Virus record (IMG/VR): IMGVR_UViG_3300024974_000002
Coordinates: 1 to 51,589 of that record
Source: a virus
Direction: 5' to 3' (one strand)
Length of the DNA stretch: 51,589 nt
The notes under the pieces are model-generated. The model saw nothing but the letters and a program-made list of their open reading frames with translations. It ran no database searches and was not told the DNA's origin. Position numbers and translations under genes: made by a program. Shown piece after piece: positions 14,836 to 51,589 of the stretch; position 1 is the first letter of the stretch; every line of letters starts with the position of its first letter.

Positions 14836-16050
14836 TTATAGATTTAAAAATTGAATGTTTATTTTTTTCAAAGCTTCGTTTTTTCGTTTATTTCTACCAA
14901 CCAAATATACAGTTTCTGTAACATCGGTTTCGTGTGATGCCATTCCTTTTGATAAATTCAATGCAGCATCTGAAGCTCTGTCCAGTTCATCCAGAAACAA
15001 ATGTTTCAAAGCATAGAAATCAGCAGTCACATTATATTTGTCTTTTACCAATCGCTTCCATCGCAAGCCAATTTGTCGTGGCTGTGTTGGAATTAATGAT
15101 GGTTGCAATCCTCTTGTAAACAAATAATCATCGTCATCGGTACATTCTCCTATTATTTCGGTCCAAAATTTTAAAACGTTTGGCAAAATAACCTTAATTA
15201 CTTCCTTGCTAACGCTACCTTTCAAAATAGTAACTTTATATTCCTGCTTGGCCAGATTAACATCTTTCTTTTGAACTCGAAACAATTCAGCGCTTCTGCC
15301 ACCGGAATGAAAGAATATCATACCATATCTGAAAAAAGTATAATTTTCAGTTTTTAGAATCTTGAATATTTTATTCAGTTCGTCAACTTCAAGGGTTTCA
15401 CGAATTTTCTTTACTGTTTTTTTCTTTTTGATGTCCTTAATAGGATTGTGAAAAACCATTCTTTTTTCTACCAAGTCTGAAAGTACAATAGATAAATGAG
15501 TAAGGTACTTATTGTATTCGTTTGGTGTCAAATCCAAAGGATCTAACAAATCACGTATATGGCCACTGTGAATTTCACAGATAGGAAAGTCAAGTTTCAA
15601 TGCAATAGCCGATTTATCCACCTTAGCGACAATTCTTCTAATCTCTTTTGTTACACCAGGAGAAACCGTTAATAAAGGATATGCAATTTTAAGAGCTTTA
15701 ACAAAATTTAATTTTGGATGTAGCTTTTCTGCTTCCGGTTCCGGTTCTGCAATTGGTTTTACTACATATTTTTTAGTAATCGGGTTGTAACCTTTCTCTT
15801 CAAATAGTTTAGGTATCTCTTTTAGCCATGTTTCAATCACGGCTTTACGATCTTCCAAAGTTCGGAACCGGTTTAATTTTCTTCTGAAAAGAAACCCTTT
15901 TGGGTATTTCTCTTTGAACAATGGATCGTAGAATTTGCATTCTATACGCCAATCAAGCTTTAAAGATTTCTGAGAAGTCAATGTTTTCCAGTTCTCCGGA
16001 TGTACCCATAGGTCAGAGTACGCACAATCGAATAATAAATTTGTTGCCAT
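14836..16050 (-). CDS. int: Tyrosine-type site-specific integrase
   Basis: 404 aa next to attP. C-terminal catalytic region has GGRSAEL (Arg), ILKGSVSKE (Lys), ALKHLF and ASHETDVTETVYL (His...Tyr). Confidence 0.8.
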   Translation of the reverse strand: MATNLLFDCAYSDLWVHPENWKTLTSQKSLKLDWRIECKFYDPLFKEKYPKGFLFRRKLNRFRTLEDRKAVIETWLKEIPKLFEEKGYNPITKKYVVKPIAEPEPEAEKLHPKLNFVKALKIAYPLLTVSPGVTKEIRRIVAKVDKSAIALKLDFPICEIHSGHIRDLLDPLDLTPNEYNKYLTHLSIVLSDLVEKRMVFHNPIKDIKKKKTVKKIRETLEVDELNKIFKILKTENYTFFRYGMIFFHSGGRSAELFRVQKKDVNLAKQEYKVTILKGSVSKEVIKVILPNVLKFWTEIIGECTDDDDYLFTRGLQPSLIPTQPRQIGLRWKRLVKDKYNVTADFYALKHLFLDELDRASDAALNLSKGMASHETDVTETVYLVGRNKRKNEALKKINIQFLNL

Positions 16051-24058: not shown

Positions 24059-24535
24059 ATGGAAACATTACAAATTGACAAAGCGAATGCTTTAAAAGCC
24101 CACGAAGAGGCAAGTATCAAAGGGAAATCATTATTGGAAAATCTATTTGGCAAAAAAGTTTTTCTAAAAGATGTAAAAGACAGAATCAAAAATTTTGATG
24201 ATGTTTTGGCCGAAAACGGAATTTCAAGAGAAGATTTTGAAACATCCTGCGAAGGATTGGAACCAGATGAAATTGCCTATCGAATGGCAAAATTAGTATG
24301 TCTAGCATTCAATGAGGGATGGTTGCCAGATTGGACCAATAGCAATGAGTATAAGTATGCGCCTTATTTCAGAATGGGTTCTTCTTCGGGCGTCGGTTTT
24401 TCGTACTACGGCTACGATCGTTGGGATACGAATTCGACTGTCGGCTCGCGCCTTTGCTTTAAATCTTCTGATTTGGCAAAACATGCTGGACAACTTTTTG
24501 AACAAGAAATTTATAAACCACTTTTTACAATTTAA
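24059..24535 (+). CDS. DGR target protein 1 (158 aa)
   Basis: Contains VR1. Paralogue of the next ORF: WLPDWTNSNEYKYAPYFRMGSSSGVGFSYYGYDRWDTNSTVGSRLCF. Confidence 0.85.
   Translation: METLQIDKANALKAHEEASIKGKSLLENLFGKKVFLKDVKDRIKNFDDVLAENGISREDFETSCEGLEPDEIAYRMAKLVCLAFNEGWLPDWTNSNEYKYAPYFRMGSSSGVGFSYYGYDRWDTNSTVGSRLCFKSSDLAKHAGQLFEQEIYKPLFTI
24378..24453 (+). repeat. DGR variable repeat VR1
   Basis: 76-nt alignment to TR. 10 mismatches, all at TR adenines (hand count). Confidence 0.9.
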
Positions 24536-24536
24536 A

Positions 24537-24917
24537 ATGAACTACACAGAAATCAAAACATTTGAAGATGCTTGCATTGCCATTGGACTTCAACAGCCGG
24601 AATTAGTAATTCCAGATTTTTTAAGCTTTCCATCAACTGATAGAGAAGCTATGATTGCACACGCAAAATTAGTGATAATCGCCAAAGCCATAAATGGTGA
24701 CTGGGTACCAGACTGGACAGATTCAAGCCAATGGAAATATTACCCTTGGTTTGAGATGGGTTCTTCTTCGGGCGTCGGTTTTTCGTTCGGCGGCGACGGT
24801 GCTTGGTATTCGGATTCGGTTGTCGGCTCGCGCCTTTGCTTTGAAACCAGAGAAAAAGCAAAGTATGTAGGAACACAATTTGAAGAATTGTACAAAATCT
24901 ATTTTGTAAAAGAATAG
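24537..24917 (+). CDS. DGR target protein 2 (126 aa; start trimmed to ATG 24537)
   Basis: Contains VR2: WVPDWTDSSQWKYYPWFEMGSSSGVGFSFGGDGAWYSDSVVGSRLCF. The track ORF 24312.. is an out-of-frame upstream extension over target 1. Confidence 0.85.
   Translation: MNYTEIKTFEDACIAIGLQQPELVIPDFLSFPSTDREAMIAHAKLVIIAKAINGDWVPDWTDSSQWKYYPWFEMGSSSGVGFSFGGDGAWYSDSVVGSRLCFETREKAKYVGTQFEELYKIYFVKE
24760..24835 (+). repeat. DGR variable repeat VR2
   Basis: 76-nt alignment to TR. 17 mismatches, 16 at TR adenines plus one T->G (hand count). Confidence 0.9.
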
Positions 24918-24948
24918 CAAATTAAGGTTGTGTGGTGTCGTTGCTGTA

Positions 24949-25024
24949 GTTCTTCTTCAGGCGTCAGTTTTTCGTACAACGACTACGATAATTGGAATAC
25001 GAATTCGAATGTCAGCTCGCACCT
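24949..25024 (+). repeat. DGR template repeat (TR), non-coding, immediately upstream of the RT
   Basis: 19 adenines in 76 nt. In the VR frame it reads SSSGVSFSYNDYDNWNTNSNVSSH. Homology to the VRs breaks at 25025 (CCTGAGCTAA vs CCTTTGCTTT). Confidence 0.9.
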
Positions 25025-25061
25025 GAGCTAAAAAATATTAAACATCACAGACCTTGCCCAC

Positions 25062-26093
25062 ATGGCAAAAAAACACAAATTAATAGGTTCGTTAGTAATG
25101 AAAATGAAAGCGAACCAATCAAAGCAAAGTATGAAACGATTCAAAAACATATACCAACAAATTATATCACCGGAAAACTTAATTCTTGCGGAAGCGAAAG
25201 CACGCAAAGGCAAAGCCAAACAATATGGTGTTAAGGTTTTTGATAAAAATCCACATGGAAACCTTGCGGAACTTCATAATATTTTGCTTGAAAAAAATTA
25301 CAAAACATCAGAATACACCACTTTCAAAATCTTTGAACCTAAGGAAAGGCTGGTTTTTAGATTGCCATACTTTCCTGATCGCATTACCCATCACGCTGTT
25401 ATGAATGTTCTGGAACCAATATTTACCAAATTATTCACGGCTGATACTTATAGTTGTATCAAAGGAAGAGGAATTCACGGAGCTGCCAATAATCTAAAAA
25501 AAGCATTGAAGGACCAGGAGAATACAAAGTACTGTTTGAAATTAGATATTGTCAAGTTCTATCCAAATGTAGATCATGAGGTTCTAAAGCAACTATTTAG
25601 AAAAAAGTTTAAAGACCAGGATTTATTTTGGTTGTTGGATGAAATTATTGATAGCGCTGATGGTTTGCCAATCGGCAATTATTTAAGCCAATATTTTGCA
25701 AACTATTACCTGACCTATTTTGACCATTGGATAAAAGAAAACAAGGAAGTAAAATATTACTTCAGGTATGCTGACGATATTATTATTCTATCGAACAACA
25801 AACCACATCTTCACGAGCTGTTGGCAGAAATAAAAACCTATTTGAATGATAATCTAAAGCTTCAGGTAAAAGGGAATTATCAAATATTTCCAGTTGAAGC
25901 CCGTGGAATTGATTTCGTGGGTTATAAGTTCTACCATACGCACACAATGCTTAGGAAATCAATCAAAAAAAGATTTGCCAAAGCAATATCAAAAACAAAA
26001 AACAAAGCAACGATAGCCGCTTATTTCGGATGGGCTAAACATTGCAATTCAAAACATTTATTAAAAAAATTAATACCAAATGAACAATTTTAA
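25062..26093 (+). CDS. DGR reverse transcriptase (alternative start ATG 25131)
   Basis: LPIGNYLSQYFANYYL ([LIV]GxxxSQ DGR signature), YADDIIILS (YxDD), and an N-terminus MKRFKNIYQQIISPENLILAEAKARKGK typical of DGR RTs. Confidence 0.9.
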   Translation: MAKKHKLIGSLVMKMKANQSKQSMKRFKNIYQQIISPENLILAEAKARKGKAKQYGVKVFDKNPHGNLAELHNILLEKNYKTSEYTTFKIFEPKERLVFRLPYFPDRITHHAVMNVLEPIFTKLFTADTYSCIKGRGIHGAANNLKKALKDQENTKYCLKLDIVKFYPNVDHEVLKQLFRKKFKDQDLFWLLDEIIDSADGLPIGNYLSQYFANYYLTYFDHWIKENKEVKYYFRYADDIIILSNNKPHLHELLAEIKTYLNDNLKLQVKGNYQIFPVEARGIDFVGYKFYHTHTMLRKSIKKRFAKAISKTKNKATIAAYFGWAKHCNSKHLLKKLIPNEQF

Positions 26094-34204: not shown

Positions 34205-34618
34205 ATGAAAGCACTATCAATAAAACAGCCTTGGGCATCATTGATTGCTAATGGCATTAAGGACATCGAGAACAGAACTTGGAAAACTCACTTTCGAGGT
34301 AGAATTTTTATTCATGCTTCTTCTATTTCAAAAGGAATGCTTGGTTTGTTAAATAAAGAGCAAGTTGGAGATATTAGAAAAAAGTCAAAGCTAGATTTTG
34401 ATTTTCCAACTTCAGCCATAATCGGAGAAGTTGACATCATAGATTGTGTTATCAATCATCCAAGCATCTGGGCAGAAAAAACAGATTTCAGTCAAGAAGA
34501 TCCTGCATCAATCTGGAACTGGGTACTTGCCAATCCAGTTCTTTATGATAAACCAATCCTGAATGTAAAAGGAAAACTGTCGTTTTGGGAATTTGAACCT
34601 TTAAAAATAGAAAAATGA
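34205..34618 (+). CDS. ASCH domain protein
   Basis: MKALSIKQPWASLIANGIKDIENRTW matches the ASCH N-terminal pattern. Confidence 0.7.
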   Translation: MKALSIKQPWASLIANGIKDIENRTWKTHFRGRIFIHASSISKGMLGLLNKEQVGDIRKKSKLDFDFPTSAIIGEVDIIDCVINHPSIWAEKTDFSQEDPASIWNWVLANPVLYDKPILNVKGKLSFWEFEPLKIEK

Positions 34619-37022: not shown

Positions 37023-37079
37023 TGTAACATATTTTGCAACATACTAACATATTTTGTTACATTTGTGGTATAATGTAAC
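37023..37079 (+). promoter_or_regulatory. Promoter with two direct TAACATATTTTG repeats (20-nt period) and a TACATTTG box
   Basis: TAACATATTTTG at 37025..37036 and 37045..37056. TACATTTG at 37058..37065. TGTAAC again at 37074..37079. Confidence 0.55.
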
Positions 37080-39359: not shown

Positions 39360-39400
39360 TAACATATTTTGCAATTTAATAGTAAAATATGTTACTTTTG
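39360..39400 (+). promoter_or_regulatory. Promoter with TAACATATTTTG, its inverted copy, and a TACTTTTG box
   Basis: TAACATATTTTG at 39360..39371. AAAATATGTTA at 39384..39394. TACTTTTG at 39393..39400. Confidence 0.55.
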
Positions 39401-39408
39401 ATATTCTT

Positions 39409-39783
39409 ATGAAGAACATCCGTTCGGTCTTTATTTTACTAATTGGGATGATTAGTCTAACAGCATTTGCAACTACAAGCAAACTGGACCAAAAACAAAA
39501 AACAGAATTCAAAAGTGAGCATTCAGTTCAAATTGAAGCTGTAAACGTAGCAAATGATTTTCAGGTTGTTTCTGTATCTACAGTGGCATTTTTAAACAAC
39601 AGTGAAGTGAAAGTCTTTACAATTTCAATCAATCCGGTGATCAATTCAATTACTGATGTTGGATGGCAAACAGAAAAGCAAACATATCAATTGACATCAT
39701 ACCATGATAAGTTGCTGGAGAATTACAATTTAAACTTCAAAAACCAATTTAAACCCGTTGCCAATATGCGTAGCAACTGTTAA
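39409..39783 (+). CDS. Small secreted protein
   Basis: Signal peptide MKNIRSVFILLIGMISLTAFA. 124 aa. Has its own promoter and terminator. Confidence 0.6.
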   Translation: MKNIRSVFILLIGMISLTAFATTSKLDQKQKTEFKSEHSVQIEAVNVANDFQVVSVSTVAFLNNSEVKVFTISINPVINSITDVGWQTEKQTYQLTSYHDKLLENYNLNFKNQFKPVANMRSNC

Positions 39784-39803: not shown

Positions 39804-39834
39804 AAAAGCCTTTCAGTAAATGAACGGCTTTTTT
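39804..39834 (+). terminator. Hairpin terminator candidate
   Basis: AAAAGCC-15 nt-GGCTTTT, followed by TT. Confidence 0.45.
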
Positions 39835-39838
39835 AAAT

Positions 39839-39961
39839 GGGGAAGTAGCTCAGTTGGTAGAGTAAACACGAGAAAATGGGGTCTGTCAAACGAAAATGTA
39901 CATAAGTAGTTTGAGATTGAGTTGTAAGTGTTGGTCAGCGGTTCGAGTCCGCTCTTCTCCT
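39839..39961 (+). tRNA. tRNA-like gene with canonical acceptor, D and T arms but a 58-nt segment in place of the anticodon loop (possible interrupted tRNA; UGU anticodon if 51 nt are removed)
   Basis: GGGGAAG/CTTCTCC acceptor (G3-U70). U8, A14, G18G19 and A21 present. T arm AGCGG-TTCGAGT-CCGCT. AACAC (39865..39869) pairs with GTGTT (39928..39932). Confidence 0.5.
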
Positions 39962-40032
39962 CAAAAACAACCAAGATTGAAAACATAGCTGAAGGAGTTT
40001 CAATAGGACGTTATTTTAAAATTCAGCAAAAA

Positions 40033-40100
40033 GGGGAGTTCGTCTAATGCTAGGACGGTGACTGATCATCATTACAAAGGTTGGAATCCTTTACTCTCCA
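40033..40100 (+). ncRNA. Second, degenerate tRNA-like element (68 nt)
   Basis: GGGGAGT/ACTCTCC acceptor (again G3-U70). D arm GTCT-aatgcta-GGAC. T arm AAAGG-TTGGAAT-CCTTT. Only 18 nt are available for the anticodon arm plus variable loop. Confidence 0.3.
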
Positions 40101-40328
40101 CAAAACAAAAAGCAGTTCATGCCGATAAGTCGGAACATGGAACCAGTCGGGTTGAAAAAGGCTCGTTAAATCATTCTGTGATACATCGATTACTGGGTAA
40201 AAATAGGGATGTAGACAATTTGAATCGTATAGCGTTAGGTAGTATTAATGTTTTTTAATTTTCATTGAAATGCCTTATAAAAAATCAGATGTGAGCTGCT
40301 TTTGTTTTTTAAATCAAACCAAAAAATT

Positions 40329-44957: not shown

Positions 44958-45018
44958 TAATAAATAAAGCGGAACCCGAAAAGCTAATGAGTAGGGAAAA
45001 TATCAAAAATATATAATT

Positions 45019-51067: not shown

Positions 51068-51589
51068 TGGAAGGAACCATAACCCGAAAAGATATAATTA
51101 CAGACGATGCTTTGCGCTGGGGTGATGAATATGCAAAAACATTGAATGAGGCAATTGCTAAAAATAGAGAATTTGTAGATTCAATTATTTTATTGAATGC
51201 TGAAAATGTGAAACTTCGTCGAAGTGAAAATCAAACCGAGTTTATCAAGCAGAAAAACGAAGTGAAACTCCTTGCCGAACAATCAATAGTTACGTTGAAA
51301 GAGCAGCAAATTGCCGAAACCAATTTGGAGAAAGTAAAGCAAGAAGCTTTAAAAACGGAGAAACTAGCCTTGGAAGTTGCCAATAAAAAACAGGCAGCAA
51401 CAAGAGCCGGAACAAAGCTTTCTATCGAGGAACGTGTGGCCAATGAACAGAACAACCGAATAGCAAAAGAACAGGCCATTTTATCCAGCAAAATGACAAC
51501 GGCTTATACAAAGCTAAACCTACAGCGAACTATTGCCAAAAGGAATTTGCTTGATTTATTGAGTGCCGAAAATCAAAACACAGAAGCCA
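51067..51589 (+). CDS. Tail tape measure protein, N-terminal part (runs off the window end and continues at nt 128 after removing the duplicated 127 nt)
   Basis: ATG 51067 overlaps the stop of the upstream ORF (ATAATG). The frame stays open to the window end. The joined ORF would be 3618 nt (about 1205 aa). Confidence 0.8.
   Translation, partial: MEGTITRKDIITDDALRWGDEYAKTLNEAIAKNREFVDSIILLNAENVKLRRSENQTEFIKQKNEVKLLAEQSIVTLKEQQIAETNLEKVKQEALKTEKLALEVANKKQAATRAGTKLSIEERVANEQNNRIAKEQAILSSKMTTAYTKLNLQRTIAKRNLLDLLSAENQNTEA
51463..51589. repeat. Terminal direct repeat copy B, identical to 1..127
   Basis: Same 127-nt string as the window start. Confidence 0.95.

Follow-up and report, generated by a model that had tools for sequence, protein, structure and literature searches.

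We report a small RNA gene at positions 39839-39961 (plus strand) of IMG/VR virus record IMGVR_UViG_3300024974_000002, a stretch of 51,589 nucleotides (nt) that was analysed as a whole and is called the window below. It is probable, in our judgement, that this 123-nt element specifies a stable small RNA which mimics the upper half and the elbow of tRNA-Ala without decoding, as one member of a family found in phages and prophages of Bacteroidota. As the relatives recovered here indicate, the family is borne by phages and prophages of Flavobacteriia and of other Bacteroidota, and the pattern of covariation argues that these phages keep the top half of tRNA-Ala under selection, have discarded its decoding arm and can dispense with the anticodon arm. 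With that arm lost or replaced, the members of the family cannot read codons. Our literature search found no description of an anticodon-less tRNA(Ala)-like phage family, which is thus apparently undescribed so far.

All the sequence features that the initial annotation had named in the element (acceptor stem, U8, D and T arms, 5-bp stem and inner hairpin) were found in their places (Table 1). The stem AACAC (39865-39869) / GTGTT (39928-39932) encloses 58 nt (39870-39927) at the position of the anticodon loop, where a canonical tRNA has 7 nt. The Rfam tRNA model RF00005, a comparison that the annotation had proposed, matches exactly 39839-39961 with 43.6 bits (gathering threshold 29; E = 4.6e-06 for the whole window), and its alignment passes over the 58 nt at the anticodon loop, in agreement with the loop replacement described from the letters. 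The 3' half of the element is present once in the window, where 0 copies would be expected, and the element thus lies far beyond chance.

To collect relatives, viral contigs, metagenomes and genomes were scanned with patterns, and 80 loci were obtained via the terminase protein (loci carry L numbers here). Members of the family turned up in viral contigs and metagenomes, in prophages of Flavobacterium and in the Polaribacter phage Danklef. Its common core consists of the acceptor GGGGAAG/CUUCUCC (G3·U70, usually A73), a D arm with G18G19 and a T arm, within a total length of 58-165 nt. The region between the D and T arms is absent from the 58-59-nt forms (L001, L059, L050, L128), is short and non-canonical with 6- or 8-nt loops in L015, L062 and L003, and forms a structured insert of 40-100 nt in the window element and many other members. 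Even between the minimal forms L001 and L059, the D and T stems differ through compensatory changes. Some members additionally have a hairpin or a closed domain of about 40 nt in the D loop, immediately before G18G19, and these D-loop inserts vary (GGA-GAAA-UCC versus GAA-GAAA-UUC and GC-GAAA-GC). Danklef is the sole cultured phage carrying the element; its homologue measures 58 nt, scores 50.4 bits against the Rfam tRNA model and runs from the common acceptor stem with A73 through a D arm, 3 nt, AGGUC and a T arm, without an anticodon arm. It is annotated as "tRNA-OTHER, Undet", and the paper describing Danklef merely counts its tRNAs. Among bacterial genomes, near relatives of the element were found in Flavobacterium, Kaistella, Sphingobacterium and one metagenome-assembled genome of Erysipelotrichaceae.

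Selection on the core was assessed on 20 sequences, namely 18 elements from the terminase-retrieved loci, the window and Danklef, 19 of which had been retrieved independently of the RNA sequence. When they are aligned to an anticodon-less cloverleaf, 98.1% of the cells are paired and two-sided changes occur at 13 of the 16 pairs, values that none of 500 shuffles attained, and controls slid along the alignment fall to 48-62% paired. Compensatory changes uphold each of the three core helices over a span of phages with 54-93% terminase identity. Within this set the T stem exists in at least 10 compensated variants, the canonical 4-bp D stem is conserved, and the acceptor stem is nearly invariant in its nucleotides, with G3·U70 in 19 of the 20 (the exception is L150). 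In paralogues occupying the second slot of the RNA island described below, acceptor pairs 5-7 change with compensation (GGGGAGU, GGGGAUU, GGGGAAU), and G1-G4, U70 and A73 are kept. Such a core pattern fits, short of proof, sequence-specific recognition of an alanine-type acceptor end.

The same data bear on the suggestion of the initial annotation that a tRNA gene is decaying here, and on the wider alternative of a tRNA-Ala pseudogene or a DNA-level remnant such as an attP fragment. In its favour, the phage is temperate (integrase at 14836-16050), and the window copy has U73 and one G·U pair in its D stem. Against it stand the core kept through compensatory changes across divergent phages, the covarying helices of the insert and the presence of both acceptor halves; moreover, the element lies 24 kb away from the integrase, the counterpart carried by the Flavobacterium prophage L248 lies inside that prophage, and the window genome holds no tRNA fragment elsewhere. 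We therefore regard decay or an integration remnant as very improbable.

The apparent anticodon and the question of an intron

ARAGORN at default settings made no call on the element. In intron mode it reported a tRNA-Thr(tgt) with a 51-nt intron at 32/33, and thus reproduced the threonine reading of the initial annotation, in which excision of a short insert would restore a UGU anticodon. This call proved uninformative. An intron-containing tRNA was called in 500 of 500 shuffles of the window insert, 38% of which permit some split loop of the form U33..R37. For 46 family members, intron mode returned at least 10 different anticodons with intron positions from 31 to 39 and left 16 of them uncalled; L058 and L235, nearly identical to each other, came out as His and Tyr, respectively. 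An embedded canonical anticodon stem-loop is absent from the window and from 62 of 66 sequences with G3·U70, the four positives being two genuine tRNA-Ala controls and two others without an Ala anticodon. The scan detected its positive control, the Asn-type L007, and a hidden anticodon arm of the kind seen there is absent from the window insert. Finally, no Rfam model of a group I intron or small ribozyme matched at E<=10 between 39000 and 41500.

Because all shuffles are called, the calls in relatives are discordant, embedded stem-loops are rare and no intron model matches, the UGU "anticodon" is accidental and the reading as Thr with an intron carries no information. The annotation had also pointed out that G3-U70 is an alanine identity element that clashes with a Thr anticodon, which was the right clue, the body being derived from tRNA-Ala. 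A genuine tRNA, for Thr or another amino acid, with a novel short intron excised by some splicing activity not yet known would account for the ARAGORN call and for the 5-bp anticodon-type stem around the insert, but it is at odds with the shuffle controls, with the minimal relatives that have no anticodon arm at all and with a G3·U70 pair that would mischarge a Thr anticodon with alanine; we give it hardly any credence. The group I intron tRNAs of bacteria and phages likewise have extra sequence at the anticodon loop. Unlike them, the element shows no group I fold or match, its insert, at just 51-58 nt, is much too small for such an intron, and orthologues do not regain an anticodon. It follows as a warning for annotation that intron-tolerant tRNA finders would take genes of this type for intron-containing tRNAs and give them an arbitrary anticodon.

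The arm in place of the anticodon arm

In both the minimum free energy (MFE) and the centroid fold, the segment between the D and T arms forms one extended arm. In the MFE structure the arm has about 18 bp, interrupted (5+3+4+6 bp), and is topped by a 17-nt loop whose self-complementary core, AUGUACAU, lies at 39896-39903. Between the window and the prophage L248 of Flavobacterium sp. ZT3R17 only 1 of the 17 loop positions differs, and the stems are unrelated.

Inserts were aligned manually because the automatic alignment of class-A inserts with MAFFT and RNAalifold missed the window insert. By hand, two homologous classes could be aligned. Class A comprises the window, L248, L217, L046, L234, L176 and perhaps L169. 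Its distal stem covaries (UCAAAC/GUUUGA, AAUCU/GGGUU, CUCU/AGGG, CUCU/AGAG, UCUU/GAGA, GCUUU/AAAGC) below a conserved loop of 16-19 nt (GAAAA...AAGUA), so that the inner hairpin TCAAAC (39886-39891) / GTTTGA (39909-39914), already recognised in the initial annotation, is present in the window and covaries among its class-A relatives; the covariation that a comparison with related phages was to look for in the insert does exist. Class B is a three-way junction with a covarying closing stem (CUG/CAG, CUU/AAG, CUAC/GUAG), one hairpin whose loop measures 6-7 nt and another that occurs with eight different compensated stems, often with GNRA loops. Because their helices covary and their loops are conserved, the replacing arms are conserved structures and not debris. 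In both classes the palindromic cores of the loops differ by lineage: AUGUACAU, UGUACA, ACAUGU, AGAUCU and CUAG in class A, and UGUACA, UGCGCA, GUGCGCAC and CGCGCG in the homologous loop of class B.

As a separate observation, other phage tRNA bodies with inserts of 60-130 nt were encountered at L170:5025, L178:5000, L176:5115, L168:1723, L013 and L007. Features of these bodies include a Leu-like D arm and an Asn-type acceptor; one insert module (..CUAAAACACUCUUCUAGAUUGGUAUAUUCUAGUA..) is common to L170 and L178, where it sits in two different bodies, and L007 keeps a perfect Asn anticodon arm with the extra sequence on its flanks. Insert-bearing phage tRNA genes are thus a broader, heterogeneous phenomenon.

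Possible function and comparison with known tRNA mimics

What RNase P, the CCA-adding enzyme, EF-Tu and alanyl-tRNA synthetase (AlaRS) recognise in a tRNA is its acceptor/T-arm half and its elbow, not the anticodon, and because of this we infer for the RNA a tRNA-like release, probable binding by AlaRS and a role as a non-decoding mimic. The element would be co-transcribed with a second tRNA-like gene and a structured RNA of about 200 nt, and RNase P (U at -1), 3' trimming and CCA addition would release it in the fashion of a tRNA, with no splicing of the insert. G3·U70 suffices for the charging of minihelices and of transfer-messenger RNA (tmRNA) by AlaRS, and the alanine identity set of Escherichia coli further includes the discriminator A73 and the flanking pairs G2-C71 and G4-C69. 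Both flanking pairs are present in the window element, and A73 is found in 18 of the 20 aligned sequences, with U73 in the window. By virtue of an acceptor end of alanine type the RNA would likely be a ligand, and possibly a substrate, of AlaRS, as tmRNA and alanine minihelices are. Without an anticodon it may engage, in the guise of a tRNA, host or defence factors that bind tRNA, and the variable arm could supply a lineage-specific contact, maybe through the self-pairing of two copies via the palindromic loop. Among the three explanations offered by the initial annotation, a decoy or tRNA-like regulatory RNA is the one favoured by the evidence. The boldest form of this proposal, namely that the RNAs are matured and alanine-charged by host enzymes and pair via their palindromic loops with each other or with a partner, is in our view doubtful. 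If it were true, phages would possess a charged, non-decoding, tRNA-shaped particle with which to manipulate or evade host translation or defence.

Several points weigh against the reading as an alanine-type mimic with a functional arm. Since the patterns that yielded most of the family prescribe the acceptor sequence, the terminase-anchored subset alone is unbiased. The MFE of the whole element is unexceptional (z = -1.46). Its discriminator is U39961, as opposed to A73 in nearly all relatives, and the syntenic L150 combines a like architecture with a different acceptor (AGGUUGU/ACAACCU-C); alanine identity is therefore not obligatory, and both facts weaken the alanine step. Insert-bearing tRNA bodies of other identities occur in related and unrelated phages, so the tRNA body may be just a chassis for processing and stability. 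The element stands right behind a terminator-like hairpin, and its transcription therefore needs read-through or an unrecognised promoter. As regards self-pairing, the idea rests on the hand alignment of the two insert classes. The lineage-varying palindromic loops do look like a site of loop-loop self-pairing, but AU-rich sequence often contains palindromes, and neither of two tests across the family reached significance (30/44 against 26.8±3.1 for palindrome enrichment; 7/44 against 5.0±2.3 after the shuffled inserts had been refolded), and for these reasons dimerisation is a lead at most.

The main rival holds that the element is a tRNA-shaped processing signal only, at which RNase P and 3' processing cut a read-through transcript and so split the upstream mRNA, shielded by its 3' hairpin, from the downstream non-coding RNAs, in the way of plant mitochondrial t-elements or the mascRNA of MALAT1; the released RNA would then have no function, and G3·U70 would merely be inherited from a tRNA-Ala ancestor. 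The arrangement of the locus speaks for it, since the element follows an mRNA-terminal hairpin by 4 nt and precedes other RNA genes, and a tRNA or tRNA-like gene always directly precedes the block of about 200 nt. Furthermore, RNase P needs no anticodon arm, which would explain the loss of that arm, and L150 manages without G3·U70. On the other hand, the acceptor is near-invariant while the T stem covaries freely, which would be superfluous in a purely structural signal, and the replacing arms themselves have helices that covary and a loop that is conserved. On balance we hold this explanation to be unlikely, if less so than the other rivals.

An anti-defence decoy is a further alternative: the RNA would sponge or inhibit an immune effector or toxin that recognises the acceptor, T arm or elbow, and so spare the host tRNA pool. 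It is in keeping with the variable content of the island, which in relatives holds genuine tRNA-Met, Tyr, Leu, Trp or Phe, never tRNA-Ala or tRNA-Thr. In L138, the locus closest by terminase (93%), slot 1 is occupied by a tRNA-Trp, and Cellulophaga phage Nekkels, the closest cultured relative by terminase (58.5% amino acid identity), is without an island, all of which makes the element an accessory, exchangeable gene. Phage tRNAs are known to counter tRNA-cleaving defences (PMC11555353, PMC13096335). Yet the systems known so far cleave tRNAs in the anticodon or variable loop, and what counters them are working replacement tRNAs rather than mimics devoid of an anticodon, and a specific decoy role appears rather improbable to us; besides, it overlaps with the explanation as a tRNA mimic instead of excluding it.

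Returning to that explanation, the element seems to work most like the tRNA-like domain of tmRNA (SsrA) and the tRNA-mimic domain of YrlA. The tmRNA domain has a G3·U70 alanine-type acceptor and a T arm, lacks an anticodon, and the remainder of the molecule exits at the site of the anticodon arm; tmRNA is charged by AlaRS regardless of the anticodon (PMC4201824). Unlike tmRNA, the element family has a canonical D stem, a length of 58-165 nt, no conserved tag frame and no apparent pseudoknot series. A miniature tmRNA-like RNA for ribosome rescue could appeal to the shared acceptor, T arm and missing anticodon and to class-B inserts ending in UAAUAA, but in addition to the canonical D stem it is contradicted by the reading frames of the inserts, which span 0-19 codons and encode unrelated peptides without a hydrophobic C-terminal tag. 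ARAGORN found no tmRNA at default settings, and at a lowered threshold it gave two permuted calls running into flanking sequence; genuine phage tmRNAs in the data set (L056, L078) look quite different. SmpB was not found among about 60 scanned open reading frames (ORFs), some small ORFs being outside the scan, and the same scan found no TROVE protein, CCA-adding enzyme, RNA ligase or synthetase-like protein. The mini-tmRNA idea is thereby largely refuted already and is the least probable of all those considered.

YrlA-type Y RNAs, which also occur in phages, mimic tRNA with a D arm, a T arm and an acceptor stem (Chen et al. 2014, PMC4201824), and YrlA of Mycobacterium smegmatis is cleaved by RNase P and has CCA added (PMC4201824). 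YrlA has a Ro60-binding module, stands next to a Ro60 (TROVE) gene and ends in another helix. In the element, by contrast, the ends are the acceptor stem, TROVE is missing among the scanned ORFs and tRNA is the sole Rfam family matched. In plant mitochondrial t-elements and in the mascRNA of MALAT1, acceptor/T-arm mimics with reduced anticodon arms are placed at transcript boundaries. The element likewise stands at a transcript boundary, but those systems are eukaryotic or organellar, whereas its acceptor is conserved at the nucleotide level and its replacing arm is itself a conserved structure. The same design is found in engineered tRNA scaffolds for recombinant RNA expression, in which a cargo RNA takes the place of the anticodon arm, with processing and stability provided by the tRNA body (Ponchon and Dardel; PMC3753655). 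Unlike these man-made scaffolds, the natural 58-nt forms are free of cargo and yet conserved, and the body is therefore not a chassis alone.

With respect to the loop, the dimerisation site of human immunodeficiency virus type 1 is a palindromic kissing loop. Self-associating RNAs also include the oligomeric ROOL, GOLLD and manA RNAs, and several such natural oligomeric RNAs are phage-associated (PMC12286853, bioRxiv 10.64898/2026.07.01.735769, PMC12990946). What recalls this group in the element is a self-complementary hexamer displayed by a hairpin loop, along with GNRA hairpins in the vicinity. With family-wide statistics that are non-significant, the kissing-loop likeness is no more than a lead.

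Other partners were sought as well. For a conserved protein partner, the upstream ORF encodes a small signal-peptide protein and the scanned ORFs include none of the proteins listed above. Antisense action on the phage's own genome found no support, as the best complementarity does not exceed that of shuffled inserts. A link to the reverse transcriptase (RT) of the phage was likewise discarded: the RT has its own set of template and variable repeats at 24.4-25.0 kb, and the tRNA-like gene of Danklef sits in a region without an annotated RT.

tmRNA, YrlA and the tRNA-like ends of viral RNAs each showed how cells or viruses exploit the machinery that handles tRNA. The present family is widespread in flavobacterial phages and prophages, and since it includes the cultured Danklef, there labelled just "tRNA-OTHER", the charging of the RNA, the ligands of its arm and a role in counter-defence are addressable in a tractable marine phage-host pair.

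The phage genome and its RNA island

The window is the complete genome, 51,462 bp, of a temperate tailed phage; its termini overlap by an identical 127 nt (1-127 and 51463-51589), and the genome is therefore circular. Besides the integrase, it encodes a repressor, tape-measure, lysis and replication proteins, a diversity-generating retroelement (DGR) with reverse transcriptase, a ParB/methylase, an HNH endonuclease, the large terminase, the portal and the major head protein. The host can only be inferred, the family being one of phages of Flavobacterium-type bacteria. The RNA island is intergenic, between ORF 39409-39783 and the HNH and terminase genes, upstream of the packaging genes (Table 1).

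Table 1. Features of the tRNA(Ala)-like element and of the surrounding RNA island (positions in the window)
Feature	Positions	Strand	Details and basis
Promoter-like motif TAACATATTTTG...TTACTTTTG	39360-39400	+	Bacteroidota-type TAnnTTTG -7 box; putative function
Terminator-like hairpin AGCC-T-TTCA-GTAAA-TGAA-C-GGCT, then T6	39807-39834	+	Read from sequence
tRNA(Ala)-like RNA gene	39839-39961	+	123 nt, without anticodon loop; Rfam tRNA match, family core covariation
Acceptor stem GGGGAAG / CTTCTCC	39839-39845 / 39954-39960	+	G3·U70 pair; read from sequence
D arm GCTC-AGTTGGTA-GAGT	39848-39863	+	G18G19 and A21; preceded by U8
Extended arm replacing the anticodon arm	39865-39932	+	MFE and centroid fold
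Arm helix AACAC/GUGUU	39865-39869 / 39928-39932	+	Fold
Arm helix AAU/GUU	39875-39877 / 39921-39923	+	Fold
Arm helix GGUC/GAUU	39880-39883 / 39915-39918	+	Fold
Arm helix UCAAAC/GUUUGA	39886-39891 / 39909-39914	+	Fold
Apical loop GAAAAUGUACAUAAGUA	39892-39908	+	17 nt; conserved with prophage L248
T arm AGCGG-TTCGAGT-CCGCT	39937-39953	+	Preceded by the variable region GGTC
Discriminator U	39961	+	
Spacer between the two tRNA-like genes	39962-40032	+	71 nt; conserved in L174 and Flavobacterium prophage L246
Second compact tRNA-like gene	40033-40100	+	68 nt; Rfam tRNA 37.9 bits
Structured block of about 200 nt	40108-40312	+	nt identity of 75-90% in many phage and prophage relatives; ends in a U-run

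The 41-nt promoter-like motif belongs to a repeat family (D5) and recurs at 37025-37065 (+), upstream of the methylase gene. Placed before ORF 39409-39783, it is the probable source of the transcripts that enter the island. In prophage L248, where the counterpart of this ORF is deleted, the motif lies about 45 nt upstream of the element, directly before the hairpin. The terminator-like hairpin, which stops 4 nt short of the element, is conserved in relatives and in Danklef; owing to an internal mismatch, it was not called by a consensus terminator scan.

Downstream of the element, the pairings AUUGAAA/UUUCAAU and GCUGAA/UUCAGC, drawn by eye, suggest a possible pseudoknot in the spacer. No Rfam ribozyme matched the spacer, and an HDV (hepatitis delta virus)-like theta ribozyme (PMC10879173) was dismissed, as just 4 nt are available there for P3. 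The second tRNA-like gene has the acceptor GGGGAGU/ACUCUCC with G3·U70 and A73, a 2-nt variable region and a 5-bp anticodon-type stem with two G·U pairs around the loop CUGAUCA (GAU). ARAGORN calls it Ile(gat), at a lowered threshold only. In L154, L166 and L169, the loop in this slot reads CUGGCCA (GGC, an Ala anticodon) on a compensated stem, GGUAG/CUAUU. If the window copy decodes at all, it would join an alanine acceptor to an isoleucine anticodon.

The block of about 200 nt exceeds the neighbouring genes in conservation and is probably an undescribed structured non-coding RNA, with no match in Rfam at E<=10. Its closing helix pairs AAAAGCAGUUCA (40108-40119) with UGAGCUGCUUUU (40291-40302), which in L174 correspond to AAAAUCAAUUCA and UGGAUUGAUUUU. 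According to RNAalifold on 26 unique block sequences, the closing and internal helices covary, and some lineages have an extra hairpin.

Among the other tRNA genes of these loci, those of L139 and L209 (at about 2703 and 4436), L174:3886 and L138 are 73-nt tRNAs with the anticodon UAG (Leu) and a tRNA-Leu-type D arm, in which a 5-nt variable region takes the place of the long arm usual in bacterial tRNA-Leu. Elsewhere in the window, the DGR occupies 24378-26093 (+), with the reverse transcriptase at 25062-26093, an adenine-rich template repeat at 24949-25034 and variable repeats (84-85% identical) at 24378-24463 and 24760-24845, inside ORFs 24059-24535 and 24312-24917. An ASCH-domain protein (34205-34618, +) with a predicted RNA-binding fold is the sole RNA-related domain found in the phage, and right downstream of the portal gene the Rfam DUF805b RNA motif matches 44966-44997 (+) with 39.8 bits (gathering threshold 35.6).

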